Below, piece by piece: positions 7,819 to 39,759 of a stretch of 64,000 nucleotides of DNA (positions are counted from its first letter, which is position 1; each line of letters opens with the position of its first letter). The notes under the pieces were generated by a model. It was not told the origin of the DNA. It did not search any database and saw only the letters and a program-made list of their open reading frames with translations. The position numbers were made by a program, and so were the translations under genes. Source of the stretch: Patescibacteria group bacterium (GTDB lineage Bacteria; Patescibacteriota; Patescibacteriia; UBA10025; JAHIVO01); contig JAZDEZ010000007.1 of the NCBI GenBank assembly GCA_043808365.1, forward strand, positions 73,637-137,636, written 5' to 3'.

Positions 7819-8571
7819 ATGGAAATATCAAAAGAACTAGAAAAATTTGGACTAAACCAGAAACAAGCCGAGGTTTACTTAGCCTGCCTTGAGCTTGGCC
7901 AATCCTCTGTCCAAAGAATTGCCGATAAAACTGAGATAAAAAGAACCTCGGTCTATGACCTTTTACAAAACTTAATTGATAAAAGGCTGGTTACCCAGAC
8001 TATTAAGGGCAAAAAAAGGCTGTTCGTGCCCGAAGACCCGGAAACATTAAAAAAATCCATCCGCCAAAAAGAAATGGAGCTAGACGCTCTCTTGCCCCAG
8101 CTGAAATCTATGTTCTACGTACCCGGCGTCAAACCCCGGATGGAATATTATGAAGGCGTGGCCGGAGTAAAAACAGTTTTGGAAAAAACTCTTCAAAGCA
8201 AGGAAAAAACTTTAAGAAGCATTTTGCCCTTAAAAGATATTCTGGATTTGGTTGGTGAAGAATTTTTTGAGAATTTAACTCAAAACCGCATAAAAAATGG
8301 GTATTATTTACGCACGCTGAGGCCGGAAATCAAGGAAGTAGCCCAAACCGTAGAAAAATATAAATGGGGGACTAGCGTAAAAGATAAGCGTGAAGTCCGT
8401 CTGGCACCCACCGATTTCAAATTTTCCATGACTATGTATTTGTATGACGATATAGTATCCATTATTTCCTCAAGGAAAGAAAATTTTGGCATGATCATCA
8501 AATCAGAGGAATTAGCCTACAACCAGAAGGCGCTATTTGATGTGTTATGGAAAATTAGTAAATTGTTTTAA
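7819..8571 (+). CDS. TrmB-family transcriptional regulator
   Basis: 250 aa. The N-terminal winged HTH LEKFGLNQKQAEVYLACLELGQSSVQRIADKTEIKRTSVYDLLQNLIDKRLV is typical of TrmB-like regulators. Confidence 0.8.
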   Translation: MEISKELEKFGLNQKQAEVYLACLELGQSSVQRIADKTEIKRTSVYDLLQNLIDKRLVTQTIKGKKRLFVPEDPETLKKSIRQKEMELDALLPQLKSMFYVPGVKPRMEYYEGVAGVKTVLEKTLQSKEKTLRSILPLKDILDLVGEEFFENLTQNRIKNGYYLRTLRPEIKEVAQTVEKYKWGTSVKDKREVRLAPTDFKFSMTMYLYDDIVSIISSRKENFGMIIKSEELAYNQKALFDVLWKISKLF

Positions 8572-8661: not shown

Positions 8662-8695
8662 TGGACCAAAGTGGACTTGAACCCCTGACCTCCTC
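8662..8695 (-). pseudogene. tRNA-Ala-like 3' fragment (variable loop, T arm and acceptor strand) abutting a GC-clamp cassette
   Basis: The minus strand reads GAGGAGGTC AGGGG TTCAAGT CCACT TTGGTCC A. It is nearly identical to the 3' end of the interrupted tRNA-Ala at 9149-9198. Confidence 0.6.
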
Positions 8696-8805
8696 CCCGC
8701 CTGCCGAAGCCATTGGACCGTACCGGAATCGAACCGGTAACCTCTTCCATGCCATGGAAGCGCGCTACCAATTGCGCCAACGGCCCACTGGTTTCAGCAG
8801 GCGGG
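8696..8805 (-). mobile_element. GC-clamp cassette carrying tRNA-Ala(GGC)
   Basis: CCCGCCTGCC (8696-8705) and GCAGGCGGG (8797-8805) are complementary. The inner 7-mers GAAACCA/TGGCTTC pair 6/7 and flank the tRNA. Confidence 0.5.
8714..8786 (-). tRNA. tRNA-Ala (anticodon GGC), no encoded CCA
   Basis: Manual cloverleaf: GGGCCGT TG GCGC AATTGGTA GCGC G CTTCC ATGGCAT GGAAG AGGTT ACCGG TTCGATT CCGGT ACGGTCC A. The G3:U70 Ala identity pair is present. Confidence 0.85.
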
Positions 8806-8869
8806 AATCAGCCTTTTGAGCCTGAGGCTCATAATTAACCTTATTTTATAACATTTTTCAAAATTGTTC

Positions 8870-8969
8870 CCCGCCTGCCATGCCTATTAGTAAATTTTCA
8901 TGATGTTCCACGTGGAACAGTTAGATTATATTATTGCCAATATTGATCAACTTAGCAATGGCGGGCAGG
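8870..8969. mobile_element. GC-clamp cassette with non-tRNA cargo, inserted precisely into a GTTCCACGTGGAAC palindrome
   Basis: It is bounded by CCCGCCTGCC (8870-8879) and GGCGGGCAGG (8960-8969). The flanks GTTC (8866-8869) and CACGTGGAAC (8970-8979) rejoin into the perfect 14-bp palindrome. The cargo itself holds an intact copy at 8905-8918 and TTGATCAA at 8943-8950. Confidence 0.6.
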
Positions 8970-9101
8970 CACGTGGAACATCCATTTCCTTTCTGGTCTG
9001 GTCTGGTGGACCTGGGGAGAATCTCTGCCAGAGGCAGACCTCGCCCTACCTTGATTAATTTTATTTATTGTGGCGGGGGAACTCCGATATATAGGTCACT
9101 T

Positions 9102-9148: not shown

Positions 9149-9370
9149 TGGACCAAAGGGGAGTCGAACCCCTGACCTCTGCAATGCGAATGCAGCGCCC
9201 CGCCTGCCATCGCCAATGGACCTAGGGAGAATCGAACTCCCGTCTGAGCAATGCGAATGCCCTGTACTACCACTGTACGATAGGCCCAATGGCCATGGCG
9301 GGCAGGTAACCAATTCCGACGTTTCAGTCGGAATCCCGACCGCTTCGCGTCGGGACTGAGCTATTGGCCC
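9149..9370 (-). other. Interrupted tRNA-Ala(CGC) gene: 5' piece 9355-9370 (plus TGGTTA at 9307-9312) and 3' piece 9149-9198, split in the D-loop
   Basis: The outer pieces GGGCCAA TA GCTC AGT..TGGTTA and (GG)GC G CTGCA TTCGCAT TGCAG AGGTC AGGGG TTCGACT CCCCT TTGGTCC A give 7/7 acceptor pairs including G3:U70. The interruption consists of two small hairpins (9313-9354) plus cassette 9199-9306. Confidence 0.6.
9217..9287 (-). tRNA. tRNA-Ala (anticodon CGC), no encoded CCA, nested inside the interrupted tRNA-Ala
   Basis: GGGCCTA TC GTAC AGTGGTA GTAC A GGGCA TTCGCAT TGCTC AGAC GGGAG TTCGATT CTCCC TAGGTCC A. G3:U70 is present. It is flanked by ATGGCCA/TGGCGAT adaptors and the 10-mers at 9199-9208 and 9297-9306. 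Confidence 0.8.
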
Positions 9371-9448
9371 TTATGGAAAGGTGCGGGACGAATGCTCTAT
9401 AGCTTACTGTACTATAGGCTCGGATATTATGATATTTATACTAGGCTT

Positions 9449-9629
9449 TGCCCTCGAGAGGAATCGAACCTCTATCTATCCCTTAGGACGGGATTGTTCT
9501 ACCCGCCTGCCATTACCATTGCCCCCACCAGGAATTGAACCTGGATCTAAGGCTTAGGAGTCCTTTGTTCTATCCGTTGAACTATAGGGGCATGGGCAAC
9601 GGCGGGCAGGTCCATTGAACTATGAGGGC
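9449..9629 (-). other. Interrupted tRNA-Arg(CCU) gene: 5' piece 9611-9629 and 3' piece 9449-9501, split in the D-loop by a 109-bp cassette
   Basis: The joined pieces give GCCCTCA TA GTTC AATGGA|TA GAAC A ATCCC GTCCTAA GGGAT AGAT AGAGG TTCGATT CCTCT CGAGGGC A (72 nt, 6/7 acceptor pairs). The unusual G32 could indicate decay. Confidence 0.6.
9520..9591 (-). tRNA. tRNA-Arg (anticodon CCU), no encoded CCA, nested inside the interrupted tRNA-Arg
   Basis: GCCCCTA TA GTTC AACGGATA GAAC A AAGGA CTCCTAA GCCTT AGAT CCAGG TTCAATT CCTGG TGGGGGC A. There is one A31-G39 mismatch. It is flanked by the 10-mers at 9502-9511 and 9601-9610. Confidence 0.75.
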
Positions 9630-9895
9630 ATAATATCCATTGCCCGCCAGAGGCGGGTCCGCCTTGGGCAGAAACTATAGAGGCATCGACAAGGGCGGAT
9701 TAGTCCATTATCAGCCAAAGGCATGTCCCCGCCCACCTGCTATCCTGCCCGACATGCCGTCATGGCAGGCGGGCGCAGGCTACAGGCGCGGCGCCTTCGG
9801 CGAAAAGTATAAGGGATTGTAATATCCACAACAGCGTAGAGTTGGGGCTCCGACTAAAGCGTCGGGATTGCCATGCCCATATCCACGTGTATTTA

Positions 9896-9995
9896 AAGAA
9901 TGTTCCACGTGGAACGTATATATTTACGTTCCGTGGAACAATTTAACTATTCAATTGCTATTATTGATCAATTTGGCAATAGCGGACAGATACAT
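9896..9995. repeat. Degenerate second copy of the palindrome-cargo element at the right edge of the tRNA island
   Basis: It contains GTTCCACGTGGAAC (9902-9915), GTTCC-GTGGAAC (9927-9939), TTGATCAA (9964-9971) and a decayed terminus AGCGGACAG. It aligns with 8899-8969. Confidence 0.6.
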
Positions 9996-19174: not shown

Positions 19175-20707
19175 ATGAATGATGCAAGCTTAATTTGGAT
19201 CATCCTGACCTGCGTCGGCCTGCCTGGCGGTATAATTACCGGCTGGTGGGGACGCAAATTTTGGGCGACCAAGCAAATCAATACCGCCGAAGCTAAGCTC
19301 AACCAGCTTATCCAAGAAACTAAAAACAAACAGAAAGAACTGCTGATCCAGGCCAAGGACAGGGCCATGCAGGTGATAGAAGACGCCAAACGCGAGGCGG
19401 ACAGCCGACGGCGCGAAGTCATGCATCTGCAGGATCGCATGGAAAAACGCGAAAGCCTGTTTGACCAAAAACTCCTTGACCTCGAAGGAAAACAACAGCA
19501 GTTACTGGACAAGGCCAATCGTCTAGAAGCGGCTAAACAGGAAATCCTCAAGATCAAAGACCAGCAGATGAAAAAACTGGAACAGATCGCTAACCTGACC
19601 CAGGAAGATGCCAAACGGGTATTGCTCGAAAATACCGAAAGCGGGATGAAGGAGGAACTGGTCCAGAGAATAAGCAAACTCCAGCATGAATCAAATGAAA
19701 CTGTGGAAAAAGAGGCGAAAAACATGCTCTCCCGCGTGATCCAACGGTGCGCCGCCCCGCATACTGCCGAGACGACTACAACCGTGGTCAACCTGCCGTC
19801 CGACGAAATGAAGGGCCGGATCATCGGCCGCGAGGGCCGGAACATCAAAACTCTTGAACAGCTCACCGGCGTGGAAATAATCGTCGACGACACGCCAGAA
19901 GCCATTGTCATTTCCGGCTTCTCGCCCATCCGCCGCCACCTGGCCAAGCGGGCATTAGAAAAATTGATCCAGGACGGCCGCATCCATCCGGGCCGGATCG
20001 AGGAAACTATTGAAATCGCAAAAAAGGAACTAGCCGCTGACATCAGAAAAGCCGGCGATGAAGCGTGTTATGAAGTCGGCATTGCCGGCATGGACAATAA
20101 ACTTATACAAATCGTCGGCCGTCTGAAATACCGCACCAGCTATGGGCAAAACATCCTGCGCCATTCAATTGAAGTGGCCCACCTGTCCGCGCTCCTCGCC
20201 GAAGAATTAGGCGCTGACGTGGCTGTGGCTAAAAAAGGCGGATTCCTCCATGATATCGGCAAAGCTGTTGACCATGAAGTCCAGGGCACCCATCCGGAAA
20301 TCGGACAGGATATCGGACGTAAATTCAAACTCCCCCAGTCAATCATCAACTGTATTGCCTATCACCATGAAGATGCGCCTCCGTCATTGGAAGCGGTGAT
20401 CGTCAAGGTAGCTGACGCCATTTCCGGCGCCCGGCCTGGCGCGCGCAAAGACACCTACGAGCAATATATCCAGCGATTAGACGAACTCGAAGGGCTGGCA
20501 AAGTCATTCGAGGGCGTGGAGAAATCCTATGCCATCCAGGCCGGCCGGGAAGTGCGGGTCTTTGTCGTTCCGGACAAGATTGATGATCTGGCTGCGGTCA
20601 AATTGGCAAAAGATATCGCCAAACGCATAGAAGAAGAGCTGAAATACCCCGGTGAAATCAAAGTGAATGTTATCCGGGAAAAACGCATCATCGAATATGC
20701 CAGGTAA
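19175..20707 (+). CDS. rny: Ribonuclease Y
   Basis: 510 aa with an N-terminal TM helix, a coiled coil, a KH domain (MKGRIIGREGRNIKTLE) and an HD domain (HSIEVAHLSA..GFLHDIGK). Confidence 0.93.
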   Translation: MNDASLIWIILTCVGLPGGIITGWWGRKFWATKQINTAEAKLNQLIQETKNKQKELLIQAKDRAMQVIEDAKREADSRRREVMHLQDRMEKRESLFDQKLLDLEGKQQQLLDKANRLEAAKQEILKIKDQQMKKLEQIANLTQEDAKRVLLENTESGMKEELVQRISKLQHESNETVEKEAKNMLSRVIQRCAAPHTAETTTTVVNLPSDEMKGRIIGREGRNIKTLEQLTGVEIIVDDTPEAIVISGFSPIRRHLAKRALEKLIQDGRIHPGRIEETIEIAKKELAADIRKAGDEACYEVGIAGMDNKLIQIVGRLKYRTSYGQNILRHSIEVAHLSALLAEELGADVAVAKKGGFLHDIGKAVDHEVQGTHPEIGQDIGRKFKLPQSIINCIAYHHEDAPPSLEAVIVKVADAISGARPGARKDTYEQYIQRLDELEGLAKSFEGVEKSYAIQAGREVRVFVVPDKIDDLAAVKLAKDIAKRIEEELKYPGEIKVNVIREKRIIEYAR

Positions 20708-21506
20708 AACGCTTTCCATCCTATTTTTTGGCGATATAGTCGGCAAACCAGGCCGCAAAGCCCTGGCTGCCGTATTGCCTGGCATAAAGAAAGAGTTGCA
20801 ACCAGACCTGGTCATCGCCAATGCCGAAAATATCGCGCATGGCATCGGCATCACCTCCAAAACCCTGAATGAATGCCGGCAAGCCGGCGTGGATTTCTTC
20901 ACGTCAGGCAACCACGCCTTCAAGAAACCCGACGTCCTGAATATTTTCGCTGATCCGGACGCGCCGCTCATCCGACCGGCCAACTTCCTGGAACAAGAGT
21001 CAGGCGCGGGGTTTCGTGCTATCACGATTGGCAAAATGTCGCTTCTCGTGGTAAACTTAAACGGCCAGGTATTCATTGAAGAAAAATTTTCCTCCCCCTT
21101 CGCCGCCATTGACCAGATTTTGGCCCAGCGCCACGACACTGAACTTGCGGGAGTTTTCGTCGACCTGCACGCCGAGGCGACGTCCGAAAAAGTGGCGTTT
21201 GGCTGGCACGTTGACGGCCGCGTATCAGCGGTGATCGGCACTCATACCCATATACCGACGGCGGATGAAAAAATATTGCCAAAAGGCACGGCCTATATCA
21301 CTGATGCGGGAATGGTTGGGCTGAAAGAATCGGTCATTGGGGTGGATAAGGACATTATCCTCAATAACTTCACCAATACCGAAACGACAGCGCATGACAT
21401 ACCGGACTATGGGGCATGCGTAGTAAATGCAGTGCTTGTCACTATTGATCCAGCTACCCGCAAAGCGACTGATATCCGCCGTATCCACCGTGAAATCTCT
21501 ATTTAA
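20697..21506 (+). CDS. ymdB: YmdB-like metallophosphoesterase (2',3'-cyclic-nucleotide phosphodiesterase family)
   Basis: LFFGDIVGKPGR, ANAENIAHGIGIT, GNHAF and GTHTHIPTAD. The ATG at 20697 overlaps the rny stop by 11 nt. The rny-ymdB pairing is conserved in Firmicutes-like genomes. Confidence 0.85.
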   Translation: MPGKTLSILFFGDIVGKPGRKALAAVLPGIKKELQPDLVIANAENIAHGIGITSKTLNECRQAGVDFFTSGNHAFKKPDVLNIFADPDAPLIRPANFLEQESGAGFRAITIGKMSLLVVNLNGQVFIEEKFSSPFAAIDQILAQRHDTELAGVFVDLHAEATSEKVAFGWHVDGRVSAVIGTHTHIPTADEKILPKGTAYITDAGMVGLKESVIGVDKDIILNNFTNTETTAHDIPDYGACVVNAVLVTIDPATRKATDIRRIHREISI

Positions 21507-30947: not shown

Positions 30948-31127
30948 ATTTCCTCCGAGTATTTTATTTTTAAGGTTCTTTGTTTAACTAGAAATTTTAT
31001 ATGACAAATACAATATTGTCAATAGGAATAGACTATCTATCAATAATCTATTAATCATAACTAAATATTGACTAAAACTAGCAAAATATGATACAATTAT
31101 TATTGTCAGCGACTATTGACAAAATAT

Positions 31128-31883
31128 ATGAATATATTAGAAAAAATTGGGCTATCAGCAAATGAGGCCTCTCTATACGAAGCTTTATTAAAGCTGGGGT
31201 CGGCTAATGTTCGCCAAATATTCAGAACAACTAACATAAAGCGGCCGACAATTTACTTTTGCCTGGAAAGGCTCATTAAAATAGGCGTGGTTAACGAAAA
31301 AATCACCAAAGGCAAAAATGTCTACTCGGCGGTAGACCCGGATGAGCTTCTTAAAATTACCAGGAACCAAAAAGCTGATCTGGAAGCCAGAGAAAAAGGA
31401 CTATTAGAAGCCATTCCAAAGCTGAAAAATATGGCTAAAGCAAAAGAAGCAGCAGTAGAGGTTAGGATTTATGAGGGGCCAGAGTCTATTTGGAAGCTGA
31501 GTGACGAGCTTTTACATGACCATAACGATTTTCTATTCGTCTACTCCGGCCAAACTACACTGAAGCATGTTTCCACTGAACAATTGCTATTAAAATTTAC
31601 AAAAAGGCGGCGGCAGATCGGTGGGTCAAAAGTCTATGCCATCAGTGATATTAATCCCATCAGCGAAAAACGTCTGACCGAAGGGGACACCGACTTTCGG
31701 GAAATTCGTATCCTGAAAAAACCTATCACTTTTAATTCGATCTTTTGTTTATGCGGCAAAAAAATTATCCTCATTTCCTTACAAGGTAATCCTAAAGCAA
31801 TTGTTATCGAAAACGAGCCGATTGCCGGCATTCTTGGTTTCCTTTTTTGGACACTATGGGAGTCGCTGGATACACCACGATAA
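31128..31883 (+). CDS. TrmB-family transcriptional regulator
   Basis: MNILEKIGLSANEASLYEALLKLGSANVRQIFRTTNIKRPTIYFCLERLIKIGVV. A TTGACT-N17-ATACAA promoter and the palindrome TTGTCA-N8-TGACAA (31103-31122) lie upstream. It is divergent from the PKS/rSAM operon. Confidence 0.8.
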   Translation: MNILEKIGLSANEASLYEALLKLGSANVRQIFRTTNIKRPTIYFCLERLIKIGVVNEKITKGKNVYSAVDPDELLKITRNQKADLEAREKGLLEAIPKLKNMAKAKEAAVEVRIYEGPESIWKLSDELLHDHNDFLFVYSGQTTLKHVSTEQLLLKFTKRRRQIGGSKVYAISDINPISEKRLTEGDTDFREIRILKKPITFNSIFCLCGKKIILISLQGNPKAIVIENEPIAGILGFLFWTLWESLDTPR

Positions 31884-38298: not shown

Positions 38299-38447
38299 AG
38301 CCAATTCCTAATTACTAATTTCCCCGCCTGCTTCGCCTTTGCGAAGCAAATGGCGGGCAGGTAATCAATCCCCAATGATTTAATGACTAATTGAACATTT
38401 AGGAATTAATCATTGATTAAATATTAGAAATTGAGTATTAGAAATTC
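38299..38447. repeat. AT-rich palindromic element with a nested GC-clamp hairpin (38322-38361)
   Basis: The outer arms are AATTCCTAATTACTAATTTC and GAAATTGAGTATTAGAAATT. The nested part is CCCCGCCTGC-TTCGCCTTTGCGAAGCAAAT-GGCGGGCAGG. The 15-mer CTAATTACTAATTTC is the reverse complement of 5608-5622. Confidence 0.7.
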
Positions 38448-39069: not shown

Positions 39070-39759
39070 ATGAAAGAAATCAACGAGCTAGAAAAAAACA
39101 TCAAAATCACCTTCAAGAGCCAGGACCTCCTGCGGCAGGCCATGGTCCATCGTTCGTATCTCAATGAGCATCCGGAGTTCCCCCTGCCCCACAACGAGCG
39201 GCTGGAATTTTTAGGCGACGCGGTGCTGGAGCTGGTCGTGACGGAATACCTCTACGCTAAATATCCGAACCCGGAGGGCGACCTGACCAACTGGCGCGCC
39301 AGCCTGGTCAACTCAAAAATGCTGGCGCAGATTGCCCAGGCCTGCGACCTCAACGGCTACCTCTACTTATCGAAAGGCGAATCAAAGGACGCAAACTCGA
39401 AAGCCAGGCAGTTCATCATGGCCAACGCTTTCGAAGCCCTTATCGGCGCCATCTACCTGGACCAAGGCTGGGAATCGGCGAAAAAATTCATCCATGAACA
39501 GATCCTTTTCCATCTGGAAGGCATCATCGCCAATAAAGCCTATCAGGACCCGAAAAGCCGGTTCCAGGAATTGAGCCAGGAAAATTACGGAATCACGCCG
39601 TCTTACCAAGTATTGTCCGAGAACGGTCCGGACCACGCGAAAAATTTCGTCATCGGTTTGTTCTTGGGCAAAGAGCGAATCGCCACCGGCGAAGGCTTGT
39701 CAAAACAGGAAGCGCAGGTCGCCGCCGCCGAGGCCGGGCTGAAAGTAAAAAACTGGTAG
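39070..39759 (+). CDS. rnc: Ribonuclease III
   Basis: 229 aa. Signature NERLEFLGDAVLELVV, followed by a dsRBD (KSRFQELSQ...GEGLSKQEAQVAAAEAGL). Confidence 0.95.
   Translation: MKEINELEKNIKITFKSQDLLRQAMVHRSYLNEHPEFPLPHNERLEFLGDAVLELVVTEYLYAKYPNPEGDLTNWRASLVNSKMLAQIAQACDLNGYLYLSKGESKDANSKARQFIMANAFEALIGAIYLDQGWESAKKFIHEQILFHLEGIIANKAYQDPKSRFQELSQENYGITPSYQVLSENGPDHAKNFVIGLFLGKERIATGEGLSKQEAQVAAAEAGLKVKNW

Follow-up and report, generated by a model that had tools for sequence, protein, structure and literature searches.

A tRNA gene within a tRNA gene of the same anticodon: probable hairpin-ended mobile cassettes in Patescibacteria

The 64,000-nucleotide (nt) stretch of DNA analysed here, the window, is part of contig JAZDEZ010000007.1 of a Patescibacteria group bacterium. 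Between its positions 9149 and 9629, on the minus strand, two tRNA genes are each interrupted by a complete second tRNA gene with the same anticodon. In the first of these nests, the two outer pieces (the host) can be joined in silico into a 72-nt tRNA-Arg(CCT), which is recognised by ARAGORN and has four of four pairs in the D stem, five of five in the anticodon stem, five of five in the T stem and six of seven in the acceptor stem, with a mismatch between A7 and C66. The minus strand from 9629 to 9449 reads GCCCTCATAGTTCAATGGA / CCTGCCCGCC GTTGCCCAT [72-nt tRNA] ATGGTAAT GGCAGGCGGG / TAGAAC...GAGGGCA, so that the insert measures exactly 109 nt (10 + 9 + 72 + 8 + 10). The inner gene (the guest) is called by ARAGORN and Rfam (65.6 bits), and host and guest can be told apart at diagnostic stem positions.

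The second nest is more damaged. Its host, also 72 nt long when joined (ARAGORN), is a tRNA-Ala(CGC) with seven of seven acceptor pairs, including G3:U70. Two inserts must be deleted before it can be rebuilt, the tRNA-bearing cassette and a 42-nt double hairpin; the D stem then has three pairs only, and the junction TGGTTA|GCG is one base short compared with the uninterrupted orthologue in a relative, L122 (TGGTAGAGCG). The guest Ala(CGC) scores 60.8 bits, and a third guest, Ala(GGC), further along the same strand, 64.3 bits (both ARAGORN and Rfam). ARAGORN additionally calls a spurious tRNA-Ala(CGC) at 9149-9222, composed of the host 3' piece and the right terminus of the insert and overlapping the guest 3' end; with Rfam it is barely over the threshold at 29.6 bits. 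The initial annotation had described the two nests, and its coordinates and sequences were all correct on direct reading. Its Arg host was recovered with the stems as claimed; its Ala host holds for the acceptor stem and G3:U70, but the second insert had been hidden and the D stem is short. Its picture of two nests is also incomplete: both are real, but a third cassette (Ala-GGC), a promoter cassette and older stubs accompany them. The interval holds two cassette copies and its neighbourhood two more (Table 1), and at least seven element copies are present in the window.

In both nests the two 10-nt ends of the insert pair with each other. The acceptor stem of the guest is extended by this clamp and by an adaptor helix, as had been predicted, with the cloverleaf on top, giving folds of −54 and −59 kcal/mol for cassettes 1 and 2. 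These folds have z-scores of −4.6 and −6.5, respectively (0 of 200 shuffled sequences were equally stable), and that of cassette 3 has a z-score of −7.8. The terminal 10-mers, allowing up to one mismatch, occur 14 and 17 times in the window, against 4.3 and 4.5 expected, a level reached by none of 100 shuffles. In cassette 3, the variant left terminus is the full complement of its right terminus; the T stem of the adjoining native Ala(GGC) stub is now mismatched, the native gene having been replaced by the cassette. Cassette 4 contains a weak sigma-70-like match and interrupts a copy of the palindrome that it carries itself (GTTCCACGTG / GAACA).

Table 1. Cassettes, host pieces and related remnants in the window
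Feature	Position	Strand	Evidence or remarks
Arg(CCT) host 5' piece, nt 1-19	9611..9629	minus	ARAGORN on join with 9501-9449
Cassette 1, 109 bp	9502..9610	minus	CCTGCCCGCC 9610-9601, 9-nt adaptor, guest Arg(CCT) 9591-9520, 8-nt adaptor, GGCAGGCGGG 9511-9502
Arg(CCT) host 3' piece, nt 20-72	9449..9501	minus	Rejoins exactly with 5' piece, no target duplication
Older, outermost tRNA-Arg 5' stub GCCTCTATAGTT	9673..9684	minus	Collinear with L122 stub GCCCCTATAGTT
Ala(CGC) host piece a, nt 1-16	9355..9370	minus	ARAGORN on join; matches uninterrupted L122 Ala(CGC)
Separate 42-nt GC-rich double hairpin in Ala host D loop	9313..9354	minus	Removal needed for host rebuild
Ala(CGC) host piece b, TGGTTA	9307..9312	minus	ARAGORN join; L122 comparison
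Cassette 2, 108 bp	9199..9306	minus	Left terminus 9306-9297, guest Ala(CGC) 9287-9217, right terminus 9208-9199
Ala(CGC) host 3' piece	9149..9198	minus	ARAGORN join; L122 comparison
Cassette 3	8696..8805	minus	Guest Ala(GGC) 8786-8714; consensus right terminus 8705-8696; variant left terminus CCCGCCTGCT 8805-8796
Native Ala(GGC) 3' stub, 34 nt, variable loop to acceptor end	8662..8695	minus	T arm CAGGGGTTCAAGTCC matches intact L122 Ala(GGC)
Cassette 4 region	8865..8979	minus	Cassette 8969-8870, cargo of 80 nt, promoter-like, plus palindrome GTTCCACGTGGAACA
Decayed promoter-type cassette heading tRNA cluster, left end CTGTCCGCTATTGCC	9861..9989	minus	Sequence reading
"Empty" 34-nt element, both termini and 14-nt loop	62291..62324	minus	Between stop codon and terminator
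"Empty" 39-nt element	38323..38361	minus	Right terminus with one mismatch
Terminus variant	9773-9727	minus	
Third Ala fragment	9421-9389	minus	
T-arm fragment	9130-9102	minus	
Ala 3' end with CCA	9046-9004	minus	

The 10-mers are the outer end of conserved asymmetric termini of about 16 nt, which in low-GC loci read CCTGCCCGCC-aTtGCC ... GGCgaT-GGCAGGCGGG. One genome per species was scanned with the pattern CCTGCCCGCC-N70-100-GGCAGGCGGG, giving at least 120 loci; chance matches to this pattern come from high-GC genomes. The termini can be written as YGCC units, with T, C, T in the left one and C, T, C in the complement of the right one. Over 16 positions in register their helix contains one C.A mismatch and two G.T wobbles, at fixed positions, and pairs of fully complementary termini are essentially absent, both among the matches listed and in an unbiased set. 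A complete tRNA lies between the termini at 22 loci or more, nearly all of them in metagenome-assembled genomes (MAGs) labelled Patescibacteria, including Saccharibacteria, Uhrbacteria, Kerfeldbacteria, Paceibacterota, Moraniibacteriota, Shapirobacteria, Doudnabacteria and others. The clamp had been taken for an adaptor specific to tRNA, which it is not: the same termini enclose cargo of other kinds, or just a short loop, in Patescibacteria, Desulfobacterales and further phyla. Cargo length ranges from about 13 nt, in a 33-nt element, up to about 100 nt. The non-tRNA cargos lie mostly in AT-rich intergenic DNA, and none of them has an Rfam match. In 277 kb, comprising the window and 31 loci with relatives of its neighbouring gene, consensus termini are confined to the window and L121, its closest relative. 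The sequence probably comes from a metagenome assembly, in which repeats can be mis-joined; since over 20 assemblies, independent and taken from different studies, have the same nesting, with intact lineage-specific hosts and collinear relatives, we consider an assembly or binning artefact built of chimeric repeats to be extremely improbable.

Two variants of the family merit description in their own right. A non-tRNA cargo of about 75 nt (gccagagcgg..gttaatcaagt..caccaccgc..ttcaggc) is kept within the same termini across three Saccharibacteria MAGs (L053, L057 and L110); it adjoins a cttctaacggg motif, has no Rfam match and could be a new small RNA. In Desulfobacterales MAGs (L006, L017, L020, L049, L065 and L112), the 21-nt left end CCTGCCCGCCATTGCCAGAGA is repeated two to four times and followed by stacked right ends; these arrays lie between ordinary chromosomal genes, such as LuxI/LuxR, GlnRS/GluRS and an ABC transporter.

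The placement of the tRNA cassettes is regular. All 24 cassettes with exact termini, 22 among the matches listed and the two of the window, lie within a tRNA gene, or the remnant of one, that has the anticodon of the guest, which extends to 22 further loci the sharing of anticodons noted for the two nests. In all 24 the guest is co-oriented with the host halves, and the hosts rejoin to the base, with no target duplication. The genes affected are Thr (CGT and GGT), Arg (CCT, CCG, TCG and TCT), Cys, Trp, Val, Gly, Pro and Ala. Cuts lie after nt 19-24, which is the D arm, or at nt 33-39 of the anticodon loop, often within the anticodon itself; the two are equally common, so that insertion into the D loop, the position first noticed, describes both window nests but not the family. 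Each guest family has a fixed site, as seen for Thr(CGT) in five lineages, always after nt 23, and for Arg in five lineages, always after nt 21. The only flank preference is purine|G, and left flanks vary (TAGA, GATA, TGGA, TCTG, TTTG and others); we rejected the inner variable trinucleotide of the termini as a guide to the flank, no covariation being seen by eye. Relative to the asymmetric termini, the guest is found in either orientation (17 versus 7 cases), which speaks for the termini acting at the level of DNA, regardless of the direction of transcription. A general rule that the cargo always resembles its target was also rejected: it holds for all tRNA and promoter cargos but fails for most of the others.

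Loci of relatives, fetched via the neighbouring TrmB-like gene, provide alleles without the insertions. In L122, where the neighbouring protein is 65% identical, the gene order Arg(CCT)-Ala(CGC)-Ala(GGC) is that of the window. Its Ala(CGC) gene (4827-4752) is uninterrupted and aligns with the window host, from which it differs by compensatory stem changes; the window guest is far more distant from this orthologue than the host is. Two copies of the palindrome GTTCCACGTGGAACA in L122 (5211-5197 and 4699-4685) are likewise uninterrupted. In the closer relative L121, two palindromes are filled (10695-10596 and 9994-9896), against one in the window, filled by cassette 4. The uninterrupted tRNA gene is the kind of site that the initial annotation had advised looking for in relatives.

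The guests have a history of their own. Thr(CGT) guests from MAGs of Saccharibacteria, Paceibacterota and Moraniibacteriota are 82-85% identical and their hosts 66-68%; in a second pair the values are 87% for the guest and 65% for the host. A Shapirobacteria MAG, L044, has a host whose 5' half is the same, base for base, as that of the window Arg guest, and the anticodon arm of the window Arg host is that of the L044 guest, except for the last base. Together with the likeness of guests across lineages, these cross-matches imply that tRNA lineages replace each other. In five nests guest and host are chimeric, the guest having the anticodon arm of its host and acceptor and T stems of its own. 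By these comparisons, the guest is the newcomer and the host the native gene of each genome.

An explanation with no dedicated mobility would invoke local duplication, unequal recombination and gene conversion, with GC-rich hairpins of the kind seen in repetitive extragenic palindromic (REP) elements merely marking the breakpoints. The chimeras do show recombination between guest and host, stubs and incomplete copies of tRNAs abound in the region, some structures consist of a 5' or 3' stub only (Ala-GGC and a pseudo-copy of tRNA-Ile), and the Desulfobacterales arrays resemble slippage of the 21-nt end. The guests, however, are not copies of resident genes, as the distance of the window Ala guest from the L122 orthologue, to which the host is close, makes clear. 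Identical termini and architecture surround different tRNAs in unrelated genomes, the junctions are exact, with nothing gained or lost, and guests cluster across lineages, with clean filled and empty alleles. We thus regard this explanation as unlikely.

All 24 guests are intact. For the hosts, among the matches listed and the window, 14 of the 22 that can be scored are still called by ARAGORN, the window Ala host being counted as called only after deletion of its second insert; the remaining eight have lost arms or received further hairpin insertions. The L122 Arg nest and that of the window are collinear down to the older outermost stub, but the L122 host no longer has an anticodon arm, and the L122 termini, though drifted, still pair. 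Layered stubs of this kind fit repeated invasion of whichever copy works at the time.

It had also been suggested that the nests could be functional, either as an intron-like insert that is removed, or as a split gene in which RNase P and RNase Z free the guest while the clamp anneals the host halves; two working tRNAs would then come from the locus. The termini would indeed juxtapose both host ends, the loops hit are of a kind in which breaks are tolerated, the window includes an RNase III gene, and 14 of the 22 hosts are intact, the window Arg host being a near-perfect cloverleaf although the collinear L122 host is degraded. Against this, no bulge-helix-bulge can be formed, since both junctions are at the base of a single helix and no register offers two 3-nt bulges 4 bp apart. 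Many insertions are within the anticodon itself, eight of 22 hosts are decayed or re-inserted with every guest intact, and the window Ala host has a one-base junction defect in its damaged D arm and a second insert. The occurrence of guests in both orientations relative to the termini is awkward for a signal read in RNA. No intron or ribozyme is matched in Rfam, and neither a splicing endonuclease nor a ligase is among the window open reading frames (ORFs) scanned. That the nests work as introns or split tRNAs is accordingly improbable, slightly more so than local rearrangement, and the best reading of the outer halves is as relics rather than as a spliced gene. Debris, another suggestion made at the outset, is an apt term for these outer pieces and the older stubs, but not for the remainder.

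In our reading, a non-autonomous mobile cassette with hairpin ends disables a tRNA gene and supplies its replacement, leaving the outer halves as relics. We give this a probability of about 0.7, because L122 has the empty sites, the termini are those of a large family, guests are more alike than hosts and hosts decay; the same evidence favours the knockout-plus-replacement idea of the initial annotation over its alternatives. The data establish a precise, foreign, terminus-defined insertion in the matching gene, loss of the host and horizontal sharing of the guest.

Several observations weigh against a mobile cassette. No enzyme accompanies it: 36 ORFs of the window (26 of the 43 with at least 180 amino acids, and ten shorter ones) were scanned with Pfam and contain no match to a transposase, recombinase, reverse transcriptase, splicing endonuclease or RtcB. 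Nor do genes of these kinds flank element arrays elsewhere (the Desulfobacterales arrays have ordinary neighbours), and a crude tblastn probe for an IS200-type (Y1) transposase found none in the loci examined, which are loci and not whole genomes. Insertion points are not enriched in predicted hairpin loops in a crude minimum free energy test (0.24 versus 0.25), despite many individual insertions at the boundary between a loop and the 3' side of its stem. Orientation relative to GC skew is only weakly biased (40:21), and a replication-strand bias was rejected on that count. Survival of complementing insertions alone cannot yield 24 of 24 placements in the matching gene, because sister elements plainly use neutral intergenic sites. 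The window Arg host retains 20 of 21 stem pairs, although its collinear counterpart in L122 is wrecked; we read the difference as an independent and recent hit at a hot spot, because recurrence at the same site is the rule, but selection on the host would fit as well. Finally, the termini stay at consensus where the cassette cargo has diverged to about 50%, which may hint at a local function or at homogenisation, outside the model of a mobile cassette.

Further searches for a driver were negative within their scope. An autonomous copy, with the same ends and a transposase, was found neither in the window nor in about 1.2 Mb of loci (loci, not whole genomes); unpaired termini considered as its possible ends turned out to be variants of short hairpins. 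The 108-bp element contains no ORF. With Rfam at the gathering threshold, the window and 18 carrier loci give tRNAs only and no group I or group II ribozyme core. A phage origin of the window was rejected, since it is bacterial chromosome with genes for IF-2, RNase Y, FtsH, GyrA and SMC; a phage collection gave generic tRNA matches only, and viral contigs gave chance GC-rich matches and a few empty elements.

Insertion might instead take place in RNA, a hairpin RNA being ligated into the cut loop of a structured transcript, reverse transcribed and recombined into the gene. This would agree with the concentration of insertions in D and anticodon loops, where tRNA nucleases cut, with the lack of target duplication and with the G.U-tolerant helices of termini and adaptors. 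However, the guests have no encoded CCA and so are not copies of mature tRNAs, element and cargo are combined in either orientation, and the AT-rich intergenic stretches in which sister elements lie show no sign of being transcribed. The route would require three rare steps, and the scan of window ORFs revealed no reverse transcriptase. We find it unlikely, about as much so as rearrangement without mobility.

For the mobile cassette, a mechanism can be proposed. The first insertion would be made by a structure-specific enzyme, supplied in trans and acting on folded single-stranded DNA, with as targets unpaired positions at or near the boundary of the D loop and its stem, in the anticodon loop and in other hairpins; only hits in a matching gene would survive. 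Homing-type recombination through conserved tRNA sequences could then spread a guest family to the same site elsewhere, and gene conversion between guest and host could give rise to chimeras. Such recombination would explain both the fixed site of each family and the chimeras; we know of no homing endonuclease for tRNA cassettes. Once inserted, the guest would be read within a long precursor, starting at the promoter of the host or at one supplied by a sister cassette. The terminal helix, on which its acceptor stem would stack, may keep it apart from the host remnants, and the guest would be freed and matured by RNase P, 3' trimming and CCA addition. After decay of the host, the cassette would be indispensable to the cell, an addiction-like outcome.

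A more tentative proposal is that the cargo itself provides the address. Homology of the guest, or of flanking tRNA pieces, would bring the folded cassette to the matching gene, where it would insert into a loop, needing no site-specific nuclease of its own. This would fit because 24 of 24 cassettes are in matching genes, each family keeps one site, chimeras exist and the promoter cassette sits in its own palindrome. On such self-targeting, lineages of tRNAs and of promoters would compete and replace one another horizontally throughout Patescibacteria, with a widespread enzyme reading the asymmetric termini. We consider it possible, but distinctly less likely than the mobile cassette as such.

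The surroundings of the cassettes show some further features. The three window guests do not encode a 3' CCA, which is present in the window tRNA-Ile (23653-23579) and in both native-looking L122 Ala genes (4827-4752 and 4650-4575). Upstream of this tRNA-Ile(TAT) lies a pseudo-copy of its 5' two-thirds (23883-23690, minus strand; GGGTGCATAGCTC ... TGGTTA ... GGAGCACCACTCTTAT ...), broken up by three or more insertions of GC-rich hairpins, one of which terminates in GGCGGGCAGG; it is a version of the same phenomenon with a 5' stub only. Other small families of GC-rich hairpins enter dead host tRNAs, in the window at 9354-9313 and at about 9870-9850, and a perfect 20-nt palindrome, CCTGCCTGCCGGCAGGCAGG, is present in the hosts of L091 and L104. 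The perfect palindrome GTTCCACGTGGAACA occurs in the window at 9915-9901 and 8918-8904 and as a split copy at 8979-8970/8869-8865; it is kept in relatives, lies directly 3' of promoter-like sequences preceding tRNA genes and may be an operator. Two regulators of the TrmB family are encoded in the window (7819-8571 and 31116-31883). It also contains genes for RNase III (39070-39759), RNase Y (19175-20707) and YmdB (20667-21506), RNase III being a candidate for cleaving the long terminal helix of cassette transcripts.

If the mobile reading is right, some tRNA genes of bacteria with tiny genomes are not merely inherited vertically but ride on cassettes of about 100 bp that replace their resident counterparts. 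This would be a minimal selfish replacement strategy, by an element with no toxin, nuclease or transposase gene, and a concrete route for horizontal turnover of the translation machinery. If the cargo directs insertion, the element would be of a new kind. Nests also explain puzzling tRNA fragments and duplicate calls in the annotation of Patescibacteria, such as the spurious Ala call described above. A repeat family that crosses phyla with exact asymmetric ends is a sharp handle for finding the mobilising enzyme, and its architecture suggests a possible tool, a natural scaffold by which promoters or small RNA genes could be inserted.

The literature searched, including for the 10-mers, holds no description of a bacterial tRNA gene nested in another of the same anticodon, in line with the novelty claimed for the two nests at first. 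In archaea, GC-rich leaders pair in Nanoarchaeum and mobile tRNA introns occur in Thermoproteales. Archaeal split, permuted and multi-intron tRNAs resemble the nests in having non-canonical interruptions, also in the D arm, and a GC-rich helix that juxtaposes the halves (PMC3978253, PMC4090602). The cassettes differ in being bacterial, in lacking a bulge-helix-bulge, in the decay of their hosts and in carrying a complete tRNA in the insert. The nearest work deals with tRNAs of Patescibacteria that contain group I introns (PMC13011429). Homing group I introns located within tRNA genes of cyanobacteria and of Patescibacteria (PMC13011429) also occupy a fixed site in a specific tRNA, often in the anticodon loop (position 35/36 is used here too), keep the same site across lineages and are patchily distributed. 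In contrast, a cassette measures about 108 nt and has no ribozyme, its host is replaced rather than spliced, and D-arm sites are used.

Prophages and genomic islands likewise target tRNA genes and bring sequence that preserves tRNA function. They are kilobases long, encode an integrase, use an att site at the tRNA 3' end and leave direct repeats, whereas the cassette, at 108 bp, brings a whole alternative tRNA into the D or anticodon arm, with no repeats and no enzyme gene. Closer parallels are found among small elements. IS200/IS605 "peel and paste" elements and their miniatures share the absence of target duplication, the precise empty sites and the folded single-stranded ends with imperfect hairpins; in those, each end has a separate hairpin and the left end specifies a fixed target of 4-5 nt, but the ends of the cassette pair mutually. 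With classical miniature inverted-repeat transposable elements the cassettes share imperfect inverted termini of about 16 nt in all copies, but not the target-site duplication; host tRNAs and the filled palindrome alike rejoin without a doubled base. Integron attC sites are defined by RYYYAAC / GTTRRRY, and not by termini such as CCTGCCCGCC / GGCAGGCGGG. REP/REPIN sequences, Rickettsia palindromic elements, mitochondrial GC clusters and double-hairpin elements are, like the cassettes, short, GC-rich, imperfect hairpins that are multi-copy, extragenic and non-coding, can land in genes or RNA genes and have conserved mismatches that mark the strands. The cassette termini, however, are conserved across phyla and not per species, and the loop accommodates as much as about 100 nt of cargo, with tRNA genes and promoters among it. 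Unlike in the REP/REPIN-RAYT system, there is no GTAG-type flank but only purine|G, and no RAYT was found in the loci examined. The cassettes are best placed among small non-autonomous palindromic mobile elements, as a widespread and apparently undescribed family with an unprecedented cargo and targeting.

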